DNA of 64,000 nucleotides from an uncultured virus (IMG/VR IMGVR_UViG_3300009376_000009) (lineage: Duplodnaviria > Heunggongvirae > Uroviricota > Caudoviricetes): IMG/VR virus record IMGVR_UViG_3300009376_000009; one strand, given 5' to 3'. Positions 1 to 61,812 of this stretch are shown here, in pieces (position 1 is the stretch's first letter; every line of letters starts with the position of its first letter). Position numbers and translations under genes: made by a program. Below the pieces are notes generated by a model that made no database searches, was not told where the DNA came from, and saw only the letters and a list, made by a program, of their open reading frames with translations.

Positions 1-38
1 TGTTACAAAACGCTTGAGAGAACGTTACAAAACTCTGT

Positions 39-214
39 TCTCCGCCGAAGGCGGAGAGAGAGAGAGAGGCCCGCCGAAGGCGGGCCGTTACAAAACGTTC
101 GCGCCCCGCAGGGGCGCGTTACAAAACCTTCCTCTCGCCCGTTACAAAACCTTCCTCCTGTTCGTTACAAAACGTGTTACAAAACTTCCTCCCCCCCCCC
201 CGCAGGGGGGGGGG
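39..214. repeat. Four GC-rich hairpins with GAA/GCA triloops
   Basis: TCTCCGCC-GAA-GGCGGAGA (39-57), GGCCCGCC-GAA-GGCGGGCC (68-86), CGCGCCCC-GCA-GGGGCGCG (100-118), C11-GCA-G10 (191-214). Confidence 0.85.
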
Positions 215-240
215 CGCTCATCTGCCCCCCGTTACAAAAC

Positions 241-618
241 TCAGGGGATGACCCCGAACCAATTTGTCGGGTCGTCGGGAGTCTCAGGGTCAGGGGCGCA
301 AAATATGCACGGCGTCCCGCCGTGAAATTGGTTCAGGTCTGTGCCGTCGTGCGCCACCCAATCGGTGTCCGGCATCGTGCCGGTGCAGTTCAATGTCTCT
401 CCGTTACAAAACTTTTCGGTCATCAGGGTCATCATCAGGTGTCGGGTCTTGTCCGATACCGGCAGGCACGAATCGTCTGAGCCGGAGGCCCACACGTAGT
501 CAACCATCGCGTGGATGCTGACTAGGAAGTCATGCAGCCGTTGTAGGCTCCATGCGGGCAGGTTCCTGATGTATCTATGCGACCAAATCTTGCGCTTCTG
601 TGGGTGTGTCTTGTCCAT
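241..618 (-). CDS. Hypothetical protein, cassette 1 (125 aa)
   Basis: ATG is 25 nt from the TATA of GGTTCATATA. C-terminal CxxC. Confidence 0.8.
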   Translation of the reverse strand: MDKTHPQKRKIWSHRYIRNLPAWSLQRLHDFLVSIHAMVDYVWASGSDDSCLPVSDKTRHLMMTLMTEKFCNGETLNCTGTMPDTDWVAHDGTDLNQFHGGTPCIFCAPDPETPDDPTNWFGVIP

Positions 619-639
619 GACCCATCCTGCGTGTCCGGG

Positions 640-700
640 TATATGAACCCTCCTTATCCGTTACAAAACGTTTGTTCGTCCGAGCCGGACGTTTTGTAAC
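640..700 (-). promoter_or_regulatory. Cassette promoter 1: TATA box plus interrupted palindrome
   Basis: GGGTTCATATA at 640-650 (minus strand). GTTACAAAAC 660-669 and GTTTTGTAAC 691-700 are split by a 21-nt insert. Confidence 0.8.
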
Positions 701-821
701 ATTTGAAATGTTGCGTTACAAAACTTTCACCGTCCGTTACAAAACGTTAGAGAGAAAGCGTTACAAAACTTAGAGAGAGAGTGTTACAAAAGTTTGCAAA
801 TCGTTACAAAATCTGTAACGC

Positions 822-1250
822 TCAAGAGTCCCTCCTGATGCTGATGCAGTAGGAGGTAACGTCTTCCATCTCCCAACCCTTCGATTCGATGAACTGTTGT
901 AGGGGCCAATTCCAGCCGCCGCCCATGTACTCGGCGTCGCCCTCCGGCGATAGGAAGTCATACAGTATACCGCCGTCGAATACTAGGAATAGGTCACCCT
1001 CGCACTCGTGGCTGCTGAACCCCCTGTCGCCGCCCCCTGTGGCGAATGAGAAGGTGTCCTTGAACAGCGTGCAGCCTGAATGGGCGGAGTTCAGGGCAGG
1101 AGCAGGGTATAGGGGGTTACCGTCCTCATCGTCGCAGGTGAAGCGGGCATTGAGCCACTCACGGATGACTGACGCCATCTTGCGTGCTGCTGGTGGTAGG
1201 TGTTCGATGGCGAAGTCTGCGTGGTAGGCGGGTGTCCCGTCTGCGTCCAT
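822..1250 (-). CDS. Hypothetical acidic protein, cassette 2 (142 aa)
   Basis: Leaderless ATG at the conserved promoter spacing. Acidic, protein-like composition. Confidence 0.85.
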   Translation of the reverse strand: MDADGTPAYHADFAIEHLPPAARKMASVIREWLNARFTCDDEDGNPLYPAPALNSAHSGCTLFKDTFSFATGGGDRGFSSHECEGDLFLVFDGGILYDFLSPEGDAEYMGGGWNWPLQQFIESKGWEMEDVTSYCISIRRDS

Positions 1251-1271
1251 GCTACGTCAGCATGAAGCCCC

Positions 1272-1311
1272 CCTATAAACCCCTGCTCTTTGTTACAAAA
1301 CGTTTTGTAAC
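1272..1311 (-). promoter_or_regulatory. Cassette promoter 2
   Basis: GGGTTTATAGG plus perfect palindrome GTTACAAAACGTTTTGTAAC at 1292-1311. Confidence 0.8.
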
Positions 1312-1431
1312 ATTTTATATGTTGCCGTTACAAAACTTTTCGTTACAAAACTTTCAGAGAGAGAGAGGGGTGTTACAAAATGTTCAGAGAGAGAGCGTTA
1401 CAAAACCTGTGCGTTACAAAACCTGTAACGC

Positions 1432-1821
1432 CTACTCGTCAACCTCCTGCGCGTCGCGTGCCTGCTGCTTGAGTGCGTTGATGAGTCCGGTGTTGAATTG
1501 GCGGGTCGTTACAAAACTTATGTTAGCGTCCCACCCGCGAGCGCGGCGAAGGAAGTCCTCTGTTACAAAACTTGGAACCCACGTCCAGCCCCACGCAGCG
1601 CGAGCCATGCCGATGCGCTCCATCAGGCTAGCGACCGAGAAGGTCTTGGGGAAGGGGAACGCCCCCCCGCGTCGGTACATACGGGTGTCGTAGTCGGCAG
1701 GGATGCTGCCGAACCCGCACACCATGCCGAGGAAGGCAAGGCCATGTGGGTCGTTACAAAACTCTAGTTCTTGAGGGGTCAGGTCGTCGCTGCATTCGGT
1801 GGTGTCTATGATGAGGGGCAT
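1432..1821 (-). CDS. Hypothetical protein, cassette 3 (129 aa)
   Basis: GGAGTGA Shine-Dalgarno upstream of the start, own promoter at 1861. Confidence 0.8.
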   Translation of the reverse strand: MPLIIDTTECSDDLTPQELEFCNDPHGLAFLGMVCGFGSIPADYDTRMYRRGGAFPFPKTFSVASLMERIGMARAAWGWTWVPSFVTEDFLRRARGWDANISFVTTRQFNTGLINALKQQARDAQEVDE

Positions 1822-1860
1822 GTCGGGTCACTCCGTTCTGTATGTCGCTCCACTTCCTAG

Positions 1861-1900
1861 TATATGAACCCCTCGACCCTGTTACAAAACGTTTTGTAAC
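1861..1900 (-). promoter_or_regulatory. Cassette promoter 3
   Basis: GGGTTCATATA plus palindrome at 1881-1900. Confidence 0.85.
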
Positions 1901-2020
1901 ATCGAATATATTGTCCGTTACAAAACTTTCAGAGAGAGAGAGTGTTACAAAACTTTCAGAGAGAGAACGTTACAAAAGTTTCTCTCAGAGAGAGAGCGTT
2001 ACAAAACTTCGTTACAAAAC

Positions 2021-2257
2021 TTATTCTTCACCGAATCGTCTGCAACCCGACTCGTCGTCCTCGATTACCACGTCATCTATCAGGTCGCAGGCGCAGCGTA
2101 CACAGGCTATCGCCCTCCTGAACTTTCCTTCATCGGCTAGACGGATGGCGTCGTTACAAAACTCTAACATCAGTCGGACCTTTGCACATTTCAGCGCATC
2201 TGCATTTTTCACTAACACGTACTCATCGGCCTCGCCGCCGCGCCGCACTTCGCTCAT
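2021..2257 (-). CDS. Hypothetical protein, cassette 4 (78 aa)
   Basis: Leaderless ATG 25 nt from TATA. Cys-containing acidic C-terminus. Confidence 0.8.
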   Translation of the reverse strand: MSEVRRGGEADEYVLVKNADALKCAKVRLMLEFCNDAIRLADEGKFRRAIACVRCACDLIDDVVIEDDESGCRRFGEE

Positions 2258-2278
2258 GACCCATCCTGTCGTTCGTAG

Positions 2279-2318
2279 TATATGAACCCCTCGACTGTGT
2301 TACAAAACGTTTTGTAGC
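2279..2318 (-). promoter_or_regulatory. Cassette promoter 4
   Basis: GGGTTCATATA plus palindrome with one mismatch at 2299-2318. Confidence 0.85.
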
Positions 2319-2402
2319 ATCACATATACTAACCCGCGTTACAAAACTTTTAGGCTAAGAGAGAGAGCGTTACAAAATGTTTAGAGAGAGAACGTTACAA
2401 AA

Positions 2403-2614
2403 GTTCCCCACTATCCTCCGCCCCCATACCGGGGGGCGAGGGACTTCGGGGGTCGCGTCGTATGGTACGCGCTCCCCCTACATCGCCCCGGTCTTCAAGG
2501 GTCGTCCCGGCTCCGTCGAGCCGATGCCGTCCTCTCGTGGGGTTCTGCGTGGGGTCGGATTCATCTTCTACCAGCCTTGCTCGATGCTTACAGCCGCTTC
2601 CGGTTCCTCCTACA
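2403..2614 (-). ncRNA. Candidate structured non-coding RNA, cassette 5 (~210 nt)
   Basis: Own cassette promoter but no ORF at the expected start. Three GC-rich hairpins plus a possible CCCCAC/GTGGGG closing helix. Confidence 0.55.
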
Positions 2615-2635
2615 AATTGTCCTGTGCGCCACCAC

Positions 2636-2675
2636 TATATGAACTTGCCTATGCCGTTACAAAACGTTTTGTAAC
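2636..2675 (-). promoter_or_regulatory. Cassette promoter 5
   Basis: AGTTCATATA plus palindrome at 2656-2675. Confidence 0.8.
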
Positions 2676-2761
2676 GTCCATTATGTTGCGTCGTGCGTTA
2701 CAAAACTTGTAACGGTCAGAGAGAGCAGACAGAGAGGAAGAGCGTTACAAAACTTTTAGGC

Positions 2762-3094
2762 TCAAAAGTCCGCGATTATCAGTCCTCCCTCAATCGTTAC
2801 AAAACTTCCGTCAATCAATTCGGTCTTGGTAAACTCAATAACCGTCGTATGGTCGCGCAGGTCTTCAAGGCTCGTGATGCTGTCGTAATTCTCCTGCACT
2901 TCCGCGAGGTTCTCATACTCGGTGTACTCGCAGCAAATGTCTATGGGATAAAACTCAATCTCAATGCCGCAATCCTCTTCAAGTTGCGTGAGGTATTCGT
3001 ACAACGCTATACGCCCGTAATACGAGAAGTTTGCTTCGCGGTTGCACTCTCTGAACGCATCAATAAACATCGTCTGCGTGACCGTTTCTTTCAT
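2762..3094 (-). CDS. Hypothetical acidic phage-type protein, cassette 6 (110 aa)
   Basis: Leaderless ATG 25 nt from TATA. The NFSY..R.ALYEYL..LEE / DICCEYTE pattern resembles phage hypothetical proteins. Confidence 0.85.
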   Translation of the reverse strand: MKETVTQTMFIDAFRECNREANFSYYGRIALYEYLTQLEEDCGIEIEFYPIDICCEYTEYENLAEVQENYDSITSLEDLRDHTTVIEFTKTELIDGSFVTIEGGLIIADF

Positions 3095-3115
3095 GTTACG
3101 CGCTGTTGTTCCTAG

Positions 3116-3155
3116 TATATCAACCCTGTTACTGTGTTACAAAACGTTTTGTAAC
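3116..3155 (-). promoter_or_regulatory. Cassette promoter 6
   Basis: GGGTTGATATA plus palindrome at 3136-3155. Confidence 0.85.
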
Positions 3156-3234
3156 ATCAGTAATATTGCTTGCGTGTTACAAAACTTTTGAGGCAAAAGA
3201 AAGAGAGAGAGAGAGTGTTACAAAACTTTTAGGT

Positions 3235-3513
3235 TCAAGGGCAGTAATAGGCTACTACTGTGTAGTCCTCCTTTGATAGAAGGAATCCAATCTCGGTGGT
3301 GTCGCCCTCGGCATCAAGGATGAAGATGAGTCCGCGACTCTTCCAATCCTTTTGGTTGACTGCGTGCATGGCTTGGTATACCCTTTCCTTCGATACGCTG
3401 ATTGGGGTTCCAAGCATTCGCCAATCGCCGGTCGGTCTGACCAATAACTCGCAGTCGGCCAAGTCCTTGATACTTGCTCTCCAAGCATCCTTGTCGGGGC
3501 CACTCTTACTCAT
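3235..3513 (-). CDS. Hypothetical protein, cassette 7 (92 aa)
   Basis: Leaderless ATG 25 nt from TATA. Confidence 0.8.
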   Translation of the reverse strand: MSKSGPDKDAWRASIKDLADCELLVRPTGDWRMLGTPISVSKERVYQAMHAVNQKDWKSRGLIFILDAEGDTTEIGFLLSKEDYTVVAYYCP

Positions 3514-3534
3514 GTTACGCGCACGGACTCCGAG

Positions 3535-3574
3535 TATATGAACCCACCGACGGCGTTACAAAACGTTTTGTAAC
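3535..3574 (-). promoter_or_regulatory. Cassette promoter 7
   Basis: GGGTTCATATA plus palindrome at 3555-3574. Confidence 0.85.
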
Positions 3575-4040
3575 ATTCGCCCGTTCGCGCCCGCGCCGTT
3601 ACAAAACGTTGAGAGAGAGTGGGTGTTACAAAACGTTGTTACAAAACGTTGGCCTCCGTTACAAAACGTTTGGTGCAGAAAGTGCATCAAGTGTAGCCAA
3701 ACTCACCTAATGCAGATTTCGCAGCAGGTGTGATAGGCGCAGTAAGTGTTTTGGGGGTTACTTAGTGTTAGAATGAAACTAAGTGCAAGAGTTACATTTA
3801 AGTGTAGAATATGCAGCGAGTGCAGTTTTTGCACCGTTACAAAACATTTCCATAGGGGTTACAAAACATTAGGCGAAAAATAACCCGTTACAAAACGTCC
3901 CGAATCCAACTCTTCAAATACGAATCGCAAGCGTGAAATCGCTTGGAGGGGTCATACAGGCCGTTGCGCGTTGATTTGGGGTCAAAGTACTACCCCCACT
4001 TCATAAACGCTCTAAACACGTGTTTTTCGACCCCACAACA

Positions 4041-4177
4041 GGTTGATATACTCGTATGCTGTCCGGTATGGACTCCGGCGACGCGACTCGCCAAGTTGAT
4101 ATACTACTACCTCGTCTGATACCGGCGCGGCGCACCGTTACAAAACTTAATCGTTACAAAACCGCAGGTTCATATAC
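4041..4177 (+). promoter_or_regulatory. Three tandem rightward TATA elements
   Basis: GGTTGATATAC at 4041, AGTTGATATAC at 4094, GGTTCATATAC at 4167. The TATA of the last lies 25 nt before ATG 4198. Confidence 0.7.
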
Positions 4178-10392: not shown

Positions 10393-10572
10393 ATGAGCGC
10401 AAACTGCATAAGGTGTAGAAACGCTATCATGGGGCAAGGACATAGAGTAAGCATTCTCCTGCATCGTAACAACGAGAGCGAATACGCTGCTGCCTCAATA
10501 CGAGGCAAAGTCTGCGGCAACTGCTTCCTTTGGCTTGACGCTGTGAGCATCGAGCAAGGGTCGAAGTTTTGA
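10393..10572 (+). CDS. 59-aa Zn-finger protein (not in ORF track)
   Basis: MSANCIRC...KVCGNCFLWLD has two CxxC motifs and a GGAAGG Shine-Dalgarno. Confidence 0.7.
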   Translation: MSANCIRCRNAIMGQGHRVSILLHRNNESEYAAASIRGKVCGNCFLWLDAVSIEQGSKF

Positions 10573-13677: not shown

Positions 13678-13933
13678 GCAATTCTTTCCATCATTTGACT
13701 TCGGACTAAAAGAATTACAGGGGCGCAGTAGCATGGTTTTCGCAATTCCTTCATTTCTCCATAGGTATGTAGAGAGAGATAGAGAGAGGCTAATACAAAC
13801 ATCTTTGAATGAATTAAGAAATTGCCTCATAGCCGCGCAGTCCCACGAATCAATTATTCGACGCAAGCACGATTTAACAAAATGAATATGTTCATAAGCA
13901 TGACTATGGAAGAAAGGTATACGAGGCGATAGT

Positions 13934-14353
13934 ATGTCGGGGAGTAGCAGGAACCTGAGATTGGCTGATTGGCTATACGGCTACCTACACGTGAATGGGC
14001 CAAAGGCTGTGGCTCAAATCAAGGACTACATCAACAATGACCACATGACTGTACCTACGGGTGGTGTACCCGCCACGAAGGTAAGGGGTTCATATTCATC
14101 ACCGCAGATAGCGGGGGTTCTACAATCAAGCCCCCTTTTCCAAAAGGCCGGGTTTGAAAGAGTTACTTATTCATCGGCTCACACCCCATGCGGTACTGTA
14201 TCAGACCACGTCTACCTATGGGAGATAGTGCCTGTCGAAGAAGTTGTAGACAAAATGCTTGCGAATAAGAACAAACATCGTCTACGGAGATTTCAGCCAA
14301 ATGTAATCAAGCAAGAATTGAAGCGACGCGGGGAGGTCATCACAAATGAGTAA
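13934..14353 (+). CDS. Winged-helix-like protein
   Basis: YLHVNGPKAVAQI...SSPQIAGVLQSSPLF. TTCATAAGCAT promoter at 13891. Confidence 0.7.
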   Translation: MSGSSRNLRLADWLYGYLHVNGPKAVAQIKDYINNDHMTVPTGGVPATKVRGSYSSPQIAGVLQSSPLFQKAGFERVTYSSAHTPCGTVSDHVYLWEIVPVEEVVDKMLANKNKHRLRRFQPNVIKQELKRRGEVITNE

Positions 14354-40199: not shown

Positions 40200-40264
40200 T
40201 AATCATCCACTCCACCAAATGCCTTACGGCTCGCTATACGATTAGATTAGGCTCAAGTGTTGTT

Positions 40265-46127: not shown

Positions 46128-46454
46128 TCAACCTACCCGTAGTCCGGGGTCAATAGGAACATCATCAGGGTCTACTGTCTCTGTATCAGGGCAGTTACGC
46201 TTATCGTGGCCTGTGTTACCACAAACACTACATTTGCGAGTAGACATGGCTTCCTCAATCTTTTCGACTTCGTCAGCGATAGCATCAGCGTGTTCTTCGC
46301 CTTCCTCTGCTATGTTGATAACTTCGTCAAGAGTTATCTTGCCGTCTGCGTTGACTTCTTGATATTTCCTCATAGCCCATAATGCGGCTGCTCCAACAAC
46401 GGCCAATAGACCAAGCCACAACTCTAACTCAACTCCGTATATCTCCATTTTCAT
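46128..46454 (-). CDS. Membrane protein with EF-hand-like loop and CCHC zinc knuckle
   Basis: N-terminal TM helix, NADGKITLDE, CSVCGNTGHDKRNC. Confidence 0.8.
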   Translation of the reverse strand: MKMEIYGVELELWLGLLAVVGAAALWAMRKYQEVNADGKITLDEVINIAEEGEEHADAIADEVEKIEEAMSTRKCSVCGNTGHDKRNCPDTETVDPDDVPIDPGLRVG

Positions 46455-47284: not shown

Positions 47285-50200
47285 CTAACTAAAATCTACA
47301 TACACTATACAGGAAACATGACCGAAACTCAGACTTCCACCAACCCGCTTTACTTGTAGAGAATCGCCCTCAGACACAGCAAACGTAAGCCCTGTTTTAG
47401 TGAAATTGTAGTTTGTTCCATTTGAGTTAACCATAGTATCGGCGGTGAGTGTGAAGTCTTCTATATCAGAGCCGGAAGTGCCTCCATTCTTACGCACACG
47501 GAAAGTCTGCGTTGCTGTGCCGCTAAGAGATGTGCCTGTCGAAGAAAGAGAGACTGCCCTCACTACACCGGCTTTCGGCATTGGGAAAAGATTTGACCCA
47601 CTTGTAGATGCGGCTGGAACGGGTATTCTCAAATCATAGGTGTTTGTGCCTAAACTATCTCGCTGGTAGAAATATTGCGCCCAACTGTTAAAGTCATCGT
47701 TATCAAACGCAGACAACTTGATTTCACTTATCAATTTCCTGCGTTCCCCTGCACCATAGTCCAATAAGATTAACTCATCCCGCGTCCCATCTACGTCCGC
47801 CGTCATATCCGTTAATTCAGTTAGGTCAAGAGAAATAGTGCTTGAGTAATCTCCGCTTGTCGTATTCGATTGGGAAATATCTAATCCTGTGCCGACTGAT
47901 ATATCAACTCCGGTCATATCACCACTACCGCCGCCGCCGGTCATATCATCTACAACTAGGTCAATAGTCCCATCTCCATCCTGATAGGTAGCAGAAATCC
48001 TCGTTTCCGTGTTAGATGTAAACATGGCCCCTACTATATCCTGAACTTCCTCGTTTGAAAGTTGAGTGTTCGTATCGGTATCGGTTGCTACCAAATCTAT
48101 TGTCCCGTCGCCATCTTGATAAGTAGCGGTGATATTAGTTTCAGTATTTCCTGAAAACATTCCGCCGACTATGTCTTGAACTTCCTCAGTTGTGAGTTGG
48201 GTGTCGGCGGTCATATCAGTTACTTCTAAGTCTATTGTTCCATCGCCATCTTGATAAGTAGCAGAAATCCTCGTTTCGGTATTACCTGAGAACATACCTC
48301 CGACTATATCCTGAACTTCCTCAGTTGAGAGTTGAGTATTCGTATCAGTAGCGGCAATAGTCATATTTGTGCCGGACGGAGTGAGGCTTATATTGCTTCC
48401 AGCAACCAATTTAATGTCTTGTGTCCCACTTCCTGCGCCACTTTCAGTCAATCGAAGGAGAACATCGGCACTACTGTCTACCCATGAAGTCGCATATTCG
48501 TTCTGAGTATTAGTGTTGGCCGTCATATCATCTACGACTAAATCTATCGTTCCATCTCCATCTTCATAGGTAGCCGAAATCCTAGTTTCGGTGTTCGACG
48601 TAAACATAGCGCCTACTATGTCTTGAACCTCTTCCGTTGTAAGATTAGTGTCTAAGTCATCCACAACTAGGTCTATGGTTCCGTCACTATCCTCGTATGT
48701 AGCCGTAATCCGGGTTTCGGTATTGCTTGTAAACATAGCACCGACAATATCCTGAATATCCTCTGTGGGGTCAGTCCATGACCCAACTCCACTAAGACCG
48801 GAGTATTTGAGATAATTACCCGTAGACCCCCCACTTGGAAGATGAATATTTCCTGCGGTTGTTGGGTGACTATATTGAGTTGAGGCAAATGTAATTGAGT
48901 CGGCTCCTGCTGATGTAGTAATTGTAACGTTGCTTCCCCCCACCAACGTTAGGGTATCTGTCGCTCCGTCTGCTACCACATCATCTTGCCCTGATACTGA
49001 TATAGTCTTGAATGCCTCTCCTGCCCCACCCGATGCGGTAGTGTCTATTGCATCTTGTAGGTTATCGAGAGTCATATACTTCCATTCCGAAGCAGTTTCG
49101 TCCCATAGCAGAATCTTATCGTCAGTAGCATCTGATGACTCATCTAATTCAGTAAGAGTTACGGGGTCTGCAATACTGAATGTAGTAGTTGAAAGAGCAA
49201 GGCCATTACCTGCTGAATACGTAGTATTGGTATCTGCGGTCATATCGTCTACGACTAAGTCTATTGTTCCATCACCATCCTGATATGTCGCTGAGATTCT
49301 TGTTTCTGTGTTACCACCGAACATAGCCCCTACTATGTCTTGAATATATTCATCACTCCGAGGTTGAGTGTCGGCGGTCATATCGTCTACGACTAAGTCA
49401 ATAGTCCCGTCACCGTCCTCGTATGTGGCCGCAATCCTAGTTTCCGTGTTACCACCAAACATAGCCCCCACAATGTCTTGCACAGCCTCGGTAGTCAATG
49501 GCGCACCGTCCAATGTAGTCACTACATCTATTGTTCCATCCCCGTCCTGATATGTAACTGCCGTGTTGGTTTCGGTATTCGATGTAAACATAGCCCCCAC
49601 AATATCTTGAACTTCTTCTGTGGTGAGTTGGGTATTTGCGGTCATATCATCTACAACCAAGTCTATTGTCCCATCTGCATCATCATAGGTGACCGAAATC
49701 CTTGTTTCGGTGTTGCTGGTGAACATCGCTCCTACAATATCTTGAATGTCTTCTGCGGGGTCAGCCCATGTTGCTACTCCTGAGAACCCACCATACTTCA
49801 AATAATTACCTGATGAACCCCCTGTTGGAACGTGCTTATTGCCCGCAGTTGTTGGATGAGTATAGACTGTGTCTGTATCTGTCGCAGCAATAGTCATATC
49901 TGTGCCGGACGGAGTAAGAGAAATATTACTCCCTGCGACCAACTTAATGTCTTGTGTCCCTGAGCCTGCTCCACTTTCTGTTAACCTAAGAAGAACATCA
50001 CTACTGCTATCTACCCAAGACGTTGCATATTCGTTCTGCGTGTTGTTATCAGTAGTCATATCATCAACTACGAGGTCAATTGTTCCATCCCCGTCTTGAT
50101 AGGTGGCCGCTATTCTCGTTTCAGTATTGGAAGTGAACATGGCTCCTACAATATCTTGCACTTCTTCGGTAGAAAGATTAGTGTCCGCAACATAGTCGGG

Positions 50201-53200
50201 AGTAGCCCATGTCGCTACTCCGCTAATGCCGGAGTATTTCAAGAATTGACCTGACGACCCCCCTGATGGAATGTGAATATTCCCCGCAGTAGTTGGATGA
50301 GTATAGACGGTGTCGGTATCAGTAGCAACAAAGTCAAGTGTTCCATCCCCATCTTGATATGTGACCGAAATATTAGTTTCTGTGTTACCTGAAACCATCG
50401 CCCCTACTATGTCTTGAACTTCTTCGGTTGAAAGTTGAGTATTCGTATCAGCAGTCATATCATCAACAACAAGGTCAATGGTTCCATCACCATCTTCGTA
50501 TGTTGCTGAAATACGAGTTTCTGTGTTACTTGAAAACATGGCCCCTACTATATCTTGCACAGCCTCGGTAGTCAAAGGAGCGCCATCAAGAGTTGTGACG
50601 ACGTCTATCGTCCCATCACCATCCTGATACGTAACTGATGTGTTAGTTTCAGTATTGCCTGAAAACATGGCCCCTACCAAATCTTGAATATATTCATCAG
50701 TCCGAGGTTGAGTATCTGTGGCGACGAAATCAAGGGTTCCATCACCATCCTCATACGTCACAGAAATGTTTGTTTCAGTATTCCCTGATACCATCGCCCC
50801 AACAATGTCCTGCACTTCCTCAGTCGTAAGGGCAGCGACATAATCAGGAGTAGCCCATGACCCAACCCCACTCAAACCTGAGTATTTCAAGAATTGGCCT
50901 GATGAACCACCGGCAGGAAGATGATGATTACCCGCAGTTGTAGGGTGAGTATAGACTGTATCATTGTCGGTGGCTACGAAATCGAGAGTCCCGTCATCGT
51001 CTTGATATGTGACTGAAATATTAGTTTCAGTATTGCCCGATACCATAGCACCCACAATATCTTGAACTGCTTCCGTAGTCAAGGGCGCACCATCAAGGGT
51101 AGTAACCACATCAATAGTGCCGTCACCATCTTGATAGGTAACAGAAGTATTCGTTTCGGTGTTCGACGTAAACATAGCCCCGACTATATCCTGCACTTCC
51201 TCAGTTGTAAGTTGGGTATCAGCCGTCATATCGTCTACGACTAAATCTATTGTTCCGTCGCTATCATCATAGGTAACTGAAATCCTAGTTTCCGTATTCG
51301 ATGTAAACATGGCTCCGACAACATCTTGAATATCTTCTGTGGGGTTAGTCCAAGTTGCTACCCCACTTGTTAGAGCATATTTCAAATAATCGCCCGACGA
51401 ACCCCCGGTTGGGACGTGCTTGTTTCCAGCAGTAGTAGGGTGAGTATAGACGGTATCTGTATCTGTCGCCACGAAATCAATCGTTCCATCACCATCCTGA
51501 TAAGTAACTGAGATATTAGTTTCCGTGTTACCTGTGAGCATACCACCTACTATGTCTTGCACTTCCTCCGTTGTTAGGTTGGTATCTAAATCATCAACGA
51601 CAAGGTCAATAGTCCCATCTCCGTCTTCGTATGTAGCCGAGATTCGTGTTTCGGTATTTCCTGAGAACATGGCTCCTACTATGTCCTGAACGGCTTCTGT
51701 CGTAAGTGGTGCGCCGTCAAGAGTAGTAACCACATCTATTGTTCCATCCCCGTCTTCGTAAGTAACTGATGTATTGGTTTCTGTGTTGCCTGAGAACATG
51801 GCTCCGACAATATCTTGCACCGCTTCGGTAGTTAGTGGTGCGCCATCGAGAGTTGTAACTACATCAATAGTCCCGTCTCCATCTTGATAGGTCACAGAAG
51901 TATTAGTTTCAGTATTCCCTGAAAACATGGCTCCTACAATATCTTGAACTTCCTCAGTAGATAACTGAGTATTAGTGTCTGCGGTCATGTCGTCCACAAC
52001 TAAGTCAATTGTGCCGTCACCGTCTTCGTAAGTGGCGGCAATACGAGTTTCAGTATTCCCTGAAAACATAGCCCCGACAATATCCTGAACGGCTTCGGTG
52101 GTCAATGGTGCGCCATCTAAGGTCGTGACCACATCTATTGTGCCGTCGCCATCTTGATATGTAACTGCTGTATTGGTTTCGGTATTACCGGAGAACATAG
52201 CACCGACAATATCCTGAATATACTCATCAGTCCGGGGCTGTGTATCAGTAGCAGCAATAGTCATATCTGTCCCATCAGGGGTTAACGAAACGTTAGAGCC
52301 AGCAACCAATTTAATATCCTGTGTTCCTGAACTTGCCCCACCTGCTGTTAAGCGCAGAAGAACATCGTTAGAGGAATCAACCCAAGAAGAAGTGTAGGTA
52401 TTTTGGGTGTTAGTGGTTGTGTCGGGAGGAACTACCCAATCACCGTCCTCCCTAAGATACTTGGTAGTAGTGGCTCCGCCATCTCTTGCAGGAACTAAAG
52501 CGGCTGTGCCGGGGCTTGTTGAGCCTGCGAACGTCGAGTAAGTGGTATCAGGAGAAGTTAAGGTAATGAGGAAGGGGTCGCCCGAAGTCCCGGCTCCTGT
52601 TAAGTTCGTCCCAAGTGAGCCTGTGGCGGTCACAAACTTCACATATTCGCCTTCTTGCACATCTTCGTTGTCGCCGCCACTATCTACAATCTTGAAGCCA
52701 TCCCCCATGTCTACTGTATCTGTATTTGTCGTAAAAGTAAGTGCGCTTTGCATATAGGTCGTCAAGCGACTCATAGTGGCCTTCCTATTCGTTCCTCCTG
52801 CGCCATTATCTACAATCATAAGGTCAGCATCAACTAACGCTTCACCAATGTCGGTCATACCATCAATATCAAGACTAAATGCTGTTCCTGATAATCCGAT
52901 ACCACCGTTTGCCGTAGCAGAATACGTAGTATTTGTGTCTGCGGAGGAAAATGTAATTGTGTCCGTTCCAGCATTCGTGGTAATCGTCATACCACCCGCC
53001 GCTACAAGAGTTAAGTCATCTCCCGCAGAAGCCGCAAGTGAAGTTTGGCCGGACACCGCAATACTGTCGAAAGCGTTAGCACTACCCCCCGCCGCAGCCC
53101 ACTCAATACCGTCCGCCCCCGAATTAACGGTCAAAACTTGGTTTGCGGTTCCAATCGCTAATACGCCTAATGCACCATGTCCTTGTCCGTACAATACTGA

Positions 53201-54322
53201 GTTTCTAGCAGCGTATTCGATACCCGTTCCTCCTGCGGCCACAGGTAATCTGAGTGTGCTTCCTCTTGCTCTGTAAACTCCTTCTGCTACTTGAGTGTAA
53301 TTCCAATCTCCAAGCACTTTGGGTCTTTTCACCGTATGAATCTCTGATGAGTTAATATCGGTGAATAACGTAGAGCCATAGAGTTTTGCACCACCTTCTA
53401 TCTCCAACGAATAGCAATCCAAAATTAGATTAGAGCGAATCTGTGCATAATGTGCTGAGTTTGTTGGTTTACCTATTTTAAGGCCGTGATATTTCACATT
53501 GAAAGTATTGAATCCTGCTGTTCCCGATGGCCCACGATTAGCGTCGCCATTGACGGGAAGATACCACGTCGTTGAATTAGGAACAAACCTAACTGTCGAA
53601 AGCCCCCAATCAGTAGCAACGACACCCCTATGAGCAGTAACGGATGCGGTAGGTGAAACGTCCATATCCAAAGTAAGTGACCCATCAAAACTGAACTCCT
53701 TCGTTAAATCCGCTTCTGTGCGAGTCAACGGTTTGATAGGAGCATCAGAATCAAGGCTAAGAGCATCTACTTTTCCAAAAGAATTGCTTTGAGTTGGGAC
53801 AAAAGTAGGTGAGAAGTAAACTGTTGAAGAGTCTGTAATGAATTGAAGATGAGGATATACCCCGTCTTCCAAAGCAATACTGATATTCGCTCCGGGCTTG
53901 AACTTAAAAGTTACATTTCCCCTTGAAGTAGAATTATCGAACATTCCGTTTTCTGCTGTATTGAGTGAAGCGTCCGTAAGGAACGTAACATAGCAATTGT
54001 TGGTTGGGGCTGACCCTGTAAACACCACCGAAGCAGTAGAAGTTGACGATATACAACCCGCCTTCTTGATTACAAGGGGGGCGTTGCCTTTGAGATTTGC
54101 TACCGCATTGAGTCTAAACCCTCTCCCTGTGGCGGTATCATTCTGAATAGTTATGCTGTTACAATAGAAATCGGAATCAAAATGCGCTGCATTTGTCGCA
54201 GTCCCGGTGAAAACTAAGTCATCCGTGCCGCCCGAAGTAAGTGTGGGCGCACCCACTTCGGCCCAATTGTCTGCTTCTGTAACTACGGAAGATGCAGAGC
54301 CATCCCAAGTAAATGTTCCCAT
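47285..54322 (-). CDS. Long repetitive tail fibre / adhesin (2345 aa)
   Basis: About 23 QDIVGAMF.GNTET...TY.DGDGTID repeats, an LPVAAGGTG fibre motif, and a chaperone gene downstream. Confidence 0.85.
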   Translation of the reverse strand: MGTFTWDGSASSVVTEADNWAEVGAPTLTSGGTDDLVFTGTATNAAHFDSDFYCNSITIQNDTATGRGFRLNAVANLKGNAPLVIKKAGCISSTSTASVVFTGSAPTNNCYVTFLTDASLNTAENGMFDNSTSRGNVTFKFKPGANISIALEDGVYPHLQFITDSSTVYFSPTFVPTQSNSFGKVDALSLDSDAPIKPLTRTEADLTKEFSFDGSLTLDMDVSPTASVTAHRGVVATDWGLSTVRFVPNSTTWYLPVNGDANRGPSGTAGFNTFNVKYHGLKIGKPTNSAHYAQIRSNLILDCYSLEIEGGAKLYGSTLFTDINSSEIHTVKRPKVLGDWNYTQVAEGVYRARGSTLRLPVAAGGTGIEYAARNSVLYGQGHGALGVLAIGTANQVLTVNSGADGIEWAAAGGSANAFDSIAVSGQTSLAASAGDDLTLVAAGGMTITTNAGTDTITFSSADTNTTYSATANGGIGLSGTAFSLDIDGMTDIGEALVDADLMIVDNGAGGTNRKATMSRLTTYMQSALTFTTNTDTVDMGDGFKIVDSGGDNEDVQEGEYVKFVTATGSLGTNLTGAGTSGDPFLITLTSPDTTYSTFAGSTSPGTAALVPARDGGATTTKYLREDGDWVVPPDTTTNTQNTYTSSWVDSSNDVLLRLTAGGASSGTQDIKLVAGSNVSLTPDGTDMTIAATDTQPRTDEYIQDIVGAMFSGNTETNTAVTYQDGDGTIDVVTTLDGAPLTTEAVQDIVGAMFSGNTETRIAATYEDGDGTIDLVVDDMTADTNTQLSTEEVQDIVGAMFSGNTETNTSVTYQDGDGTIDVVTTLDGAPLTTEAVQDIVGAMFSGNTETNTSVTYEDGDGTIDVVTTLDGAPLTTEAVQDIVGAMFSGNTETRISATYEDGDGTIDLVVDDLDTNLTTEEVQDIVGGMLTGNTETNISVTYQDGDGTIDFVATDTDTVYTHPTTAGNKHVPTGGSSGDYLKYALTSGVATWTNPTEDIQDVVGAMFTSNTETRISVTYDDSDGTIDLVVDDMTADTQLTTEEVQDIVGAMFTSNTETNTSVTYQDGDGTIDVVTTLDGAPLTTEAVQDIVGAMVSGNTETNISVTYQDDDGTLDFVATDNDTVYTHPTTAGNHHLPAGGSSGQFLKYSGLSGVGSWATPDYVAALTTEEVQDIVGAMVSGNTETNISVTYEDGDGTLDFVATDTQPRTDEYIQDLVGAMFSGNTETNTSVTYQDGDGTIDVVTTLDGAPLTTEAVQDIVGAMFSSNTETRISATYEDGDGTIDLVVDDMTADTNTQLSTEEVQDIVGAMVSGNTETNISVTYQDGDGTLDFVATDTDTVYTHPTTAGNIHIPSGGSSGQFLKYSGISGVATWATPDYVADTNLSTEEVQDIVGAMFTSNTETRIAATYQDGDGTIDLVVDDMTTDNNTQNEYATSWVDSSSDVLLRLTESGAGSGTQDIKLVAGSNISLTPSGTDMTIAATDTDTVYTHPTTAGNKHVPTGGSSGNYLKYGGFSGVATWADPAEDIQDIVGAMFTSNTETRISVTYDDADGTIDLVVDDMTANTQLTTEEVQDIVGAMFTSNTETNTAVTYQDGDGTIDVVTTLDGAPLTTEAVQDIVGAMFGGNTETRIAATYEDGDGTIDLVVDDMTADTQPRSDEYIQDIVGAMFGGNTETRISATYQDGDGTIDLVVDDMTADTNTTYSAGNGLALSTTTFSIADPVTLTELDESSDATDDKILLWDETASEWKYMTLDNLQDAIDTTASGGAGEAFKTISVSGQDDVVADGATDTLTLVGGSNVTITTSAGADSITFASTQYSHPTTAGNIHLPSGGSTGNYLKYSGLSGVGSWTDPTEDIQDIVGAMFTSNTETRITATYEDSDGTIDLVVDDLDTNLTTEEVQDIVGAMFTSNTETRISATYEDGDGTIDLVVDDMTANTNTQNEYATSWVDSSADVLLRLTESGAGSGTQDIKLVAGSNISLTPSGTNMTIAATDTNTQLSTEEVQDIVGGMFSGNTETRISATYQDGDGTIDLEVTDMTADTQLTTEEVQDIVGGMFSGNTETNITATYQDGDGTIDLVATDTDTNTQLSNEEVQDIVGAMFTSNTETRISATYQDGDGTIDLVVDDMTGGGGSGDMTGVDISVGTGLDISQSNTTSGDYSSTISLDLTELTDMTADVDGTRDELILLDYGAGERRKLISEIKLSAFDNDDFNSWAQYFYQRDSLGTNTYDLRIPVPAASTSGSNLFPMPKAGVVRAVSLSSTGTSLSGTATQTFRVRKNGGTSGSDIEDFTLTADTMVNSNGTNYNFTKTGLTFAVSEGDSLQVKRVGGSLSFGHVSCIVYVDFS

Positions 54323-61484: not shown

Positions 61485-61595
61485 GATTATCCCTTAAAAC
61501 AAGTGCCTTATCAACTTTCGGCTGTTTTTCGCATTATTTCGGTTTTTTCAGCGATTTTCAGAAAGAATTAACTGTGTGACTGCTCCCCTATACCC

Positions 61596-61713
61596 CAATT
61601 CCTTTATTCCTTCAAAGACGTAGATAATAGAATATGCTTACTATCTCATAGTTACTCTAAGAACAGGAGGGGGGCATCTCCAAAATAGCCTCTTTGAAGG
61701 AATAAAGGAATTG
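61596..61713. repeat. Perfect 23-bp inverted repeat with 72-nt spacer
   Basis: CAATTCCTTTATTCCTTCAAAGA (61596-61618) and its reverse complement (61691-61713). Confidence 0.9.
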
Positions 61714-61812
61714 CTTTACTTCTTCGCAGTATGCCGATTTAATTATTTTTCGGCCTATCAAAATTACCGAAAGAAAGAATGATTATAACTCACCTGTTGC
61801 TCATCTTGTTCA

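Follow-up and report, generated by a model that had tools for sequence, protein, structure and literature searches.

A predicted, uncatalogued RNA gene with a swappable loop in the cassette array of a virus that likely infects archaea

What does a viral cassette make when it carries the promoter of its protein-coding neighbours and yet reads TTG-TAG at the expected start? The question is posed by the fifth member of an array of small minus-strand cassettes at positions 1-4150 of the window (the whole stretch of 64,000 nucleotides analysed here), in which each cassette has a common promoter block and GTTACAAAA repeats lie between the cassettes. An earlier note had proposed an early viral non-coding RNA of no recognised family, and the evidence assembled here supports that proposal for what is a predicted RNA: no Rfam family matches it, the only candidate reading frame is not conserved, and a distant homologue has a promoter of its own. 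Cassette 5 is in all probability a real RNA gene, uncatalogued so far, probably expressed, and equipped with a loop that is swapped between strains; its function is approached below by inference only.

The source record is 70,469 bases long and rated complete, and the window represents its first 64 kb. The ends of the record overlap by about 87 nt (window 1-87 against G000 70383-70469), and hence the cassette array is continuous across them, from 67.7 kb to 4.15 kb. Comparison of 41 and 53 window proteins (region 1-64000) with Pfam and PHROGs identified a PolB DNA polymerase, a clamp loader, ERCC4 and PD-(D/E)XK nucleases, a portal, a tail tube and a tape measure protein. Sequence of the virus is present in marine sequencing runs, none of the 22 listed being an RNA run, its promoters are TATA-type and its starts leaderless, and it is likely to be a virus of archaea. 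Magroviruses are described as encoding PolB and ERCC4 (PMC10160649, available text), and by likeness of these two proteins the host might belong to the Poseidoniales. Elsewhere in the window, a 2345-aa protein (47285-54322, minus strand) is built of many near-identical repeats whose units score as THUMP in Pfam, a label that is probably false, and an inverted repeat of 26 nt, with arms about 70 nt apart, lies at 61595-61714, between the portal gene and the nuclease gene that diverges from it.

The array motif differs between lineages (L162, L292, L315, L329, L348, L361, L364 and L379), among which GTTACAAAA, CCTACAAAA, CTACAAATT, CCAACAAAT, CTACGAAGT and others occur. In two of them short GC-rich hairpin stretches with no evident ORF lie between the array repeats (L292, 6776-6860; L162, 6250-6390), and these show no BLAST similarity to the cassette-5 RNA. 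The protein of cassette 6 (2762-3094, minus strand) is an acidic member of phrog_9974 with relatives of 36-54% identity in 37 viral loci, most of which are AT-rich and devoid of a repeat array; it is thus an early gene of wide distribution.

The signals that delimit the predicted RNA, together with the one ATG reading frame of the cassette, are as follows; L343 denotes the distant homologue treated below.

2656-2675, strand not assigned: palindromic GTTACAAAAC-GTTTTGTAAC site that heads the cassette promoter and is common to the coding cassettes (families D5 and I9)
2636-2643, minus strand: archaeal-type TATA box TTCATATA, with equal spacing to the RNA start in L343
2623-2629, minus strand: GCGCACA between the TATA box and the predicted start, identical in L343
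2403-2613, minus strand: predicted non-coding RNA of about 210 nt, based on its start and folding signal, with transcription as a prediction
2394-2411, minus strand: terminal GUGGGG and the first TTTTGTAAC repeat, whose U run is the probable 3' end
2478-2564, minus strand: 28-codon ATG ORF, judged not to be a gene

The full promoter claimed by the earlier note is indeed present: the 53-nt block at 2636-2688, which includes the TATA box (2643-2636), is one of six copies and is 77% identical to the reference copy (family D5). In cassettes 1, 4, 6 and 7 an ATG start lies 22 nt past the TATA box; in cassette 5 the corresponding place, at 21 nt, is occupied by TTG (2615-2613) and TAG (2612-2610), just as the note had read it. 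If its start follows the spacing at which the sister cassettes place their leaderless ATG, the RNA would begin at 2614 or 2613, a position that coincides with the first base of the stem strand GUAGGA. At its 3' end, a terminator search called none of the bacterial type.

The ORF of 28 codons reported in the note (2564-2478) is the sole minus-strand ATG ORF of the cassette. Its ATG is lost in the strain allele X11, where a net +1 indel also shifts the frame, and its product has no entry in the protein collection; on the strength of the lost ATG and the missing entry we judge it not to be a gene. A conserved peptide, which the note had named beforehand as evidence against an RNA, was not seen. 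Read-through of TAG in the TTG frame, which contains three TAG stops, was considered and dropped, given that a neighbouring gene ends in TAG and that X11 shifts the frame.

Folding predictions favour the strand that the promoter faces. The minus strand folds better than its shuffled versions (z -2.61, with 4 of 200 shuffles as good), against z -0.80 for the plus strand, and the signal sits in 2403-2553 (z -4.47); 19 control windows of 150 nt from six coding cassettes gave z values from +0.80 to -2.14. The first 60 nt at the 5' end, 70% of them purines, fold no better than expected (z +0.33). The elements of the predicted fold are listed below, where X5, X6, X8 and X11 denote strain contigs.

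2608-2613, minus strand: 5' strand GUAGGA of the closing stem P1, unchanged in X5, X6, X8, X11 and L343
2554-2559, minus strand: 3' strand of P1, with a mismatch at 2556 in the window
2594-2603, minus strand: P1a, a 3-bp hairpin with a purine loop; the three pairs are the same in L343, and X11 loses the middle one
2555-2548 and 2543-2536, minus strand: two ACCCCACG copies, alternative partners for downstream G runs, unduplicated in L343
2507-2524, minus strand: P4 hairpin of 7 bp with a 4-nt loop, register assigned by hand
2499-2507, minus strand: GGACGA-N-CC motif, common to the window and L343
2448-2478, minus strand: arm 2, whose loop (2467-2460) is complementary to that of arm 3
2413-2444, minus strand: arm 3, a GC-rich hairpin with its core at 2438-2419 and its loop (2431-2426) as candidate loop-loop partner

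The three minus-strand hairpins of the earlier note are present both in the sequence and in the predicted ensemble, in which the pairs 2523-2508, 2478-2448 and 2438-2419 have probabilities of about 1.0, about 0.8 and 0.92-0.98. At 2556 a Watson-Crick pair is formed in X6, X8, X11 and L343, the same change occurring in those three of the five covering runs that differ from the window. The lowest-energy fold (-90.6 kcal/mol) pairs the first ACCCCACG copy with the terminal GUGGGG, and forcing the second copy onto GUGGGG costs just 2.1 kcal/mol, so that either copy can pair, as the note had supposed; its further statement that GTGGGG directly precedes the TTTTG repeat does not hold, as AAC intervenes. 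Several alternative folds are separated by just 2-11 kcal/mol. Imposing an L343-like fold on the window sequence raises its energy by 9-11 kcal/mol, and the 3' architecture given here is accordingly provisional. The 5' stem strand also resembles the reverse complement of the CCTACAAA-type array motif.

A homologue of the element was found among 80 terminase-anchored loci, in L343 at approximately 13814-13980, with 29 of 36 positions identical to the 5' end of the window element. It folds at z -2.78 (0 of 200 shuffles as good) and closes with a perfect P1 of 8 bp. Its 5' side has its own TATA box at the same spacing, followed by GCGCACA, P1 and P1a, and further motifs are colinear with the window: UGAAUCC, GGACGA-N-CC, GUA-N-GGGG-N-GC, a GC arm and a T run. 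At the place of P4 it has a hairpin of 7 bp and a 4-nt loop, 6 of whose 7 pairs are unlike those of the window in a register set by hand. The loop that follows the 5' stem strand in the window is reduced to 8 nt in L343. The arm-2 loop, with its ACC core, could pair over 5-6 bp with the loop of the next hairpin (GGU core) in the window RNA and the L343 RNA alike, with loop-loop duplex energies of -9.1 and -7.9 kcal/mol and a change from U-A to G-C beside the core; this contact is a candidate kissing loop in two sequences registered by hand. Covariation, a check that had been proposed with the RNA, gave no support: in a machine count on the alignment of P1 in the two sequences, 11 of 12 cells were paired and no base pair had changed on both sides. 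The switch suggested in the note is energetically possible, at the 2.1 kcal/mol given above, but not conserved: the X11 allele no longer aligns past 2473, and as L343 has neither the ACCCCACG duplication nor the terminal GUGGGG, such a switch is not a feature of the family.

The unit in L343 lies between direct repeats of about 33 nt, while L358 joins both flanks without the unit, and L359, judged by a BLAST pattern like that of L358, also lacks it. For the L343 copy these sequences indicate that the cassette is a mobile unit, present or absent between direct repeats.

The most distinctive property of the element emerges from a comparison of strains. Eight runs were assembled as contigs, of which five cover the 5' loop (X4, X5, X6, X8 and X11); X7 has no coverage over 2231-2764, X9 covers 2930-3165 only, and X10 yielded nothing. 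Three loop alleles were recovered across four studies, and they differ chiefly in one segment.

2570-2593, minus strand: swappable segment of 24 nt with three unrelated versions, corresponding to the 8-nt loop of L343; the divergence of X11 spans 2559-2602

X4 (study P1, a possible source of the window sequence) and X5 (study P2) are the same as the window. X6 and X8, two samples of study P3 at depths of 3.6-3.8, agree in a second allele, in which 2570-2593 shows 10 substitutions plus 3 or more indel letters, and outside the loop the X6 contig has 7 substitutions in the remaining 670 nt. The third allele, X11 (study P7, depth 7.7), has 17 of its 19 listed substitutions of 2473-2613 within 2559-2602, plus 5 indel letters, and no listed change across 2603-2677; its alignment ends at 2473, with 147 unaligned letters before that position. 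The clustering is strong by a binomial measure in each contig: 10 of 17 substitutions fall in 24 of 694 nt in X6 (p about 1e-9, scan-corrected), 10 of 12 in 24 of 203 nt in X8 (p 3e-8), and 17 of 19 in 44 of 141 nt in X11 (p 2e-7). Residual matches within the segment number 12 and 13 by table count, against 13.9 for random 24-mers scored with a different aligner. Strains are about 99% identical outside the loop. In the assembled sequences, then, the loop alleles have diverged to the level of unrelated sequence on an almost invariant scaffold. For X6 and X8 the sequences do not establish a frameshift, given that their listed indels sum to zero and one X8 insertion is unlisted. X6 further lacks 21 nt (2030-2050) at the 3' end of the cassette-4 gene, which fits a shorter 71-aa allele.

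If the loop were matched elsewhere, its source or target might be recognised. The window loop (2594-2575) has one close match, in the genome of the virus itself.

10540-10559, plus strand: 19/20 sense match of the window loop, at the 3' end of a 59-aa CxxC protein gene (10393-10572)

The match is in frame and its mismatch falls at a third codon position. No shuffle of the window among 100 gave a loop match as good, and for the whole RNA 3 of 1000 shuffles did so; in a control with real DNA, 25 of 262 genome windows of 212 nt had a second-site match as good, many of them from dispersed promoter motifs. For the 24-nt segment itself we arrive at a suggestive p of about 0.01, and the CxxC gene may be a source or target of the loop, or the match may be due to chance. 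Two other alleles of the 59-aa protein have DELS where the window reads DAVS, and the loop therefore matches best the allele of its own strain. The protein has two CxxC motifs and belongs to no family; residues 9-10 and 47-51 vary among its three alleles, one site being W, Y or H, and form a local hot spot.

Beyond this self-match, the window loop matched nothing in 24 related records and had no exact match in 185,579 prokaryote genomes, and short motifs of the other two loops yielded chance-level matches at most, both in the genome and in 407 loci that are mostly fragments. In the sense orientation the L343 RNA agrees with the portal gene of L343 itself at 17/18 positions, the odd one being a wobble (5 of 1000 shuffles as good against 14 kb), and it also matches 40203-40238 of the present genome at 31 of 37 positions; the two matches overlap, so both cannot be the source and at least one is a chance event. 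The stretch 40203-40238 (minus strand) is intergenic, preceding the tape-measure gene, and contains a small GCC-GUAA-GGC hairpin. Chance is taken to explain why 2483-2505 agrees with the cassette-6 gene at 20/23 positions (E 0.046).

Comparison with catalogued RNAs places the element outside known families. The Infernal search that had been suggested was run against Rfam 15, and its best scores were 11-19 bits against gathering thresholds of 32-70; a likeness to SRP RNA, RNase P RNA, c-di-GMP-I and REP motifs is unsupported by Rfam. ARAGORN called no tRNA or tmRNA gene in the window. Box C/D sRNAs are marked by a C box, UGAUGA, and a D box, CUGA, neither of which occurs within 2403-2613. OMEGA, bridge and TIGR guide RNAs combine a fixed scaffold with a variable specificity segment; unlike them, the cassette-5 RNA has a single, internal variable segment and is accompanied by no TnpB, IS110 or Nop-domain gene. 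The only trace of TnpB in the genome is a sub-threshold zinc-ribbon match in a 108-aa ORF (46158-46271), and none of four records has an IS110 recombinase or Nop-domain gene over the cut-off, or the reverse transcriptase gene that a retron or DGR would call for. Any protein partner would therefore come from the host or be a viral protein as yet unrecognised.

Partial likenesses to several viral systems can nevertheless be drawn, to the extent of the available text of the sources cited. The manA RNA is likewise a marine viral RNA of about 200 nt with a multi-arm fold and complementary loops (PMC2864571; 10.64898/2026.07.01.735769), and manA RNAs of less than 200 nt are described as building cages through kissing loops (10.64898/2026.07.01.735769). 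In contrast to manA, the cassette-5 RNA stands alone instead of forming a 5' UTR and has a hypervariable 5' loop, and the manA model (RF01745) found no match in the genome at E up to 10. The mini-CRISPR arrays of archaeal viruses (PMC6858448) share with it a variable short segment, the absence of cas genes and a match to viral sequence; here, however, no direct repeats flank 2570-2593 (the sole internal repeat, of 8 nt, lies downstream), the single match found is to the virus itself, with none in the 24 related records, and the Rfam search returned no CRISPR-repeat family. Racrs and viral crlRNAs are small viral non-coding RNAs with their own promoters and a proposed trans action on host immunity (PMC10651486; 10.1101/2024.10.29.618823), but they mimic CRISPR repeats, and no repeat-like unit is recognised in the present RNA, which is about 210 nt long and multi-armed. 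The closest parallel in organisation is with the PeSL (promoter-early stem-loop) cassettes of the T4-type phages RB49 and phi1, small early genes with repeated strong promoters that are gained and lost by repeat recombination (PMC2839356); in the same way, L343 carries a repeat-flanked unit with its own promoter that L358 lacks at that site. The cassette studied here differs from these in its archaeal-type TATA promoter and in a cargo that is a predicted folded RNA with a swappable loop and not a protein gene.

Searches for further members returned no third one. A covariance model of the two 5' domains found none in 84 sources (926 kb) and the 24 records, of which only 3 are at least 90% complete (31 of 68 loci extend at least 4 kb beyond the terminase). 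The RNA has no homologue in the 37 loci with relatives of the cassette-6 protein and is absent from L162, L291, L292 and L315-L318, which have similar cassette arrays. A 14-nt hairpin pattern gave only chance loci in viral contigs. So did a permissive pattern of the flanks in the 2 of 64 parts of the metagenome contigs that were scanned, and neither a stricter flank pattern nor an exact search for the promoter palindrome hit any viral contig. BLAST gave no match among GenBank phages, a terminase scan of genome contigs revealed no relative, and six short motifs were not found in 6 of the supplement files of PMC10690425. The openly accessible literature, the available part of PMC11706807 included, yielded no paper on non-coding RNAs of marine group II archaeal viruses and no account of an RNA like this one from them.

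As to function, the repeated replacement of one and the same segment points to selection on its sequence, and we lean slightly towards regarding the 24-nt loop as a specificity element. Given that there is no viral effector, that the self-match is to the sense strand and that a homologue is loop-poor, the best fit is an early decoy RNA directed against a sequence-specific host defence, with a swappable loop on a fixed scaffold, a reading to which we assign a probability of roughly one in three. A folded RNA of about 210 nt would be made early from the promoter common to the protein-coding neighbours; P1 would close its 5' end, purine-rich linkers would hold the loop open, and the GC-rich 3' arms and the loop-loop contact would stabilise it. 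With a loop that reads like viral mRNA, the RNA would sequester whichever guide or sensor of the host is directed at that sequence. Recombination between the conserved flanks would exchange the loop, and diversifying selection would retain new versions because the target that they mimic or pair with changes. Alternatively, the segment could be a programmable guide that leads a host or unrecognised viral protein to the DNA or RNA of a competing virus or of the host, with the 3' arms as protein handle. Its guide-like length of 23-25 nt, its wholesale exchange between fixed flanks and the near-perfect matches to viral genes with wobble mismatches, in the window and in the portal of L343, would suit this explanation. 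It is nonetheless unlikely: no known effector gene or flanking repeat is present, L343 does without a long loop and its portal match sits in a paired arm and overlaps the second-locus match, and the window loop, unmatched in the related records and exactly in the prokaryote genomes, has itself as its best match. An antisense regulator, in which the loop would be a seed pairing with a host mRNA or stable RNA and the alleles would follow host strains, appears equally improbable. It would accord with the unstructured, purine-rich 5' domain, the early promoter and the diversifying pattern, but no target was identified, and the single match found is sense to a viral mRNA.

A structural or protein-titrating RNA, perhaps self-assembling through loop-loop contacts like manA and bearing the 5' loop as a tolerant expansion segment, has a somewhat better though still modest chance. 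The complementarity of the arm-2 and arm-3 loops in both homologues and a loop length ranging from 8 to about 45 nt speak for it, whereas the loop-loop pairing is short and known from two sequences, the manA model does not match, and repeated full replacement of the same 24 nt is hard to explain by tolerance alone. The least probable account is that no functional RNA exists and the element is the remnant of a protein gene, or else a GC-rich operator or cruciform in the DNA of the array. TTG-TAG at the start, a startless open frame that crosses the element in both the window and L343, the resemblance of the P1 strands to the dispersed CCTACAAA motif that other relatives carry, and the zero sum of the listed loop indels in X6 and X8 would be compatible with it. 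Against it, the startless frame is shifted in X11, the conservation in L343 concerns nucleotide motifs and helices with offset indels, folding is biased to the promoter strand, and the TATA spacing and 3' T run are kept in L343. The decoy reading remains the preferred one.

A bolder and doubtful extension would unite several of these elements in a programmable viral RNA of a new kind. The 24-nt loop on its repeat-free scaffold would be acquired from viral genes and exchanged through recombination, and the RNA would guide or decoy a nucleic-acid-targeting protein of the marine archaeal host. If true, it would represent adaptive, spacer-like specificity without CRISPR repeats or a known effector. 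The viruses of marine group II archaea are uncultured, and the combination of an early promoter of its own, a mobile cassette in distant viruses and one diversified, exposed loop hints at an arms race conducted through RNA sequence. The loop alleles provide a handle on that conflict, because their matches would expose a rival virus or a host defence invisible to protein-based searches. Should the loop act as a guide, the RNA would represent an RNA-guided system whose build is undescribed.
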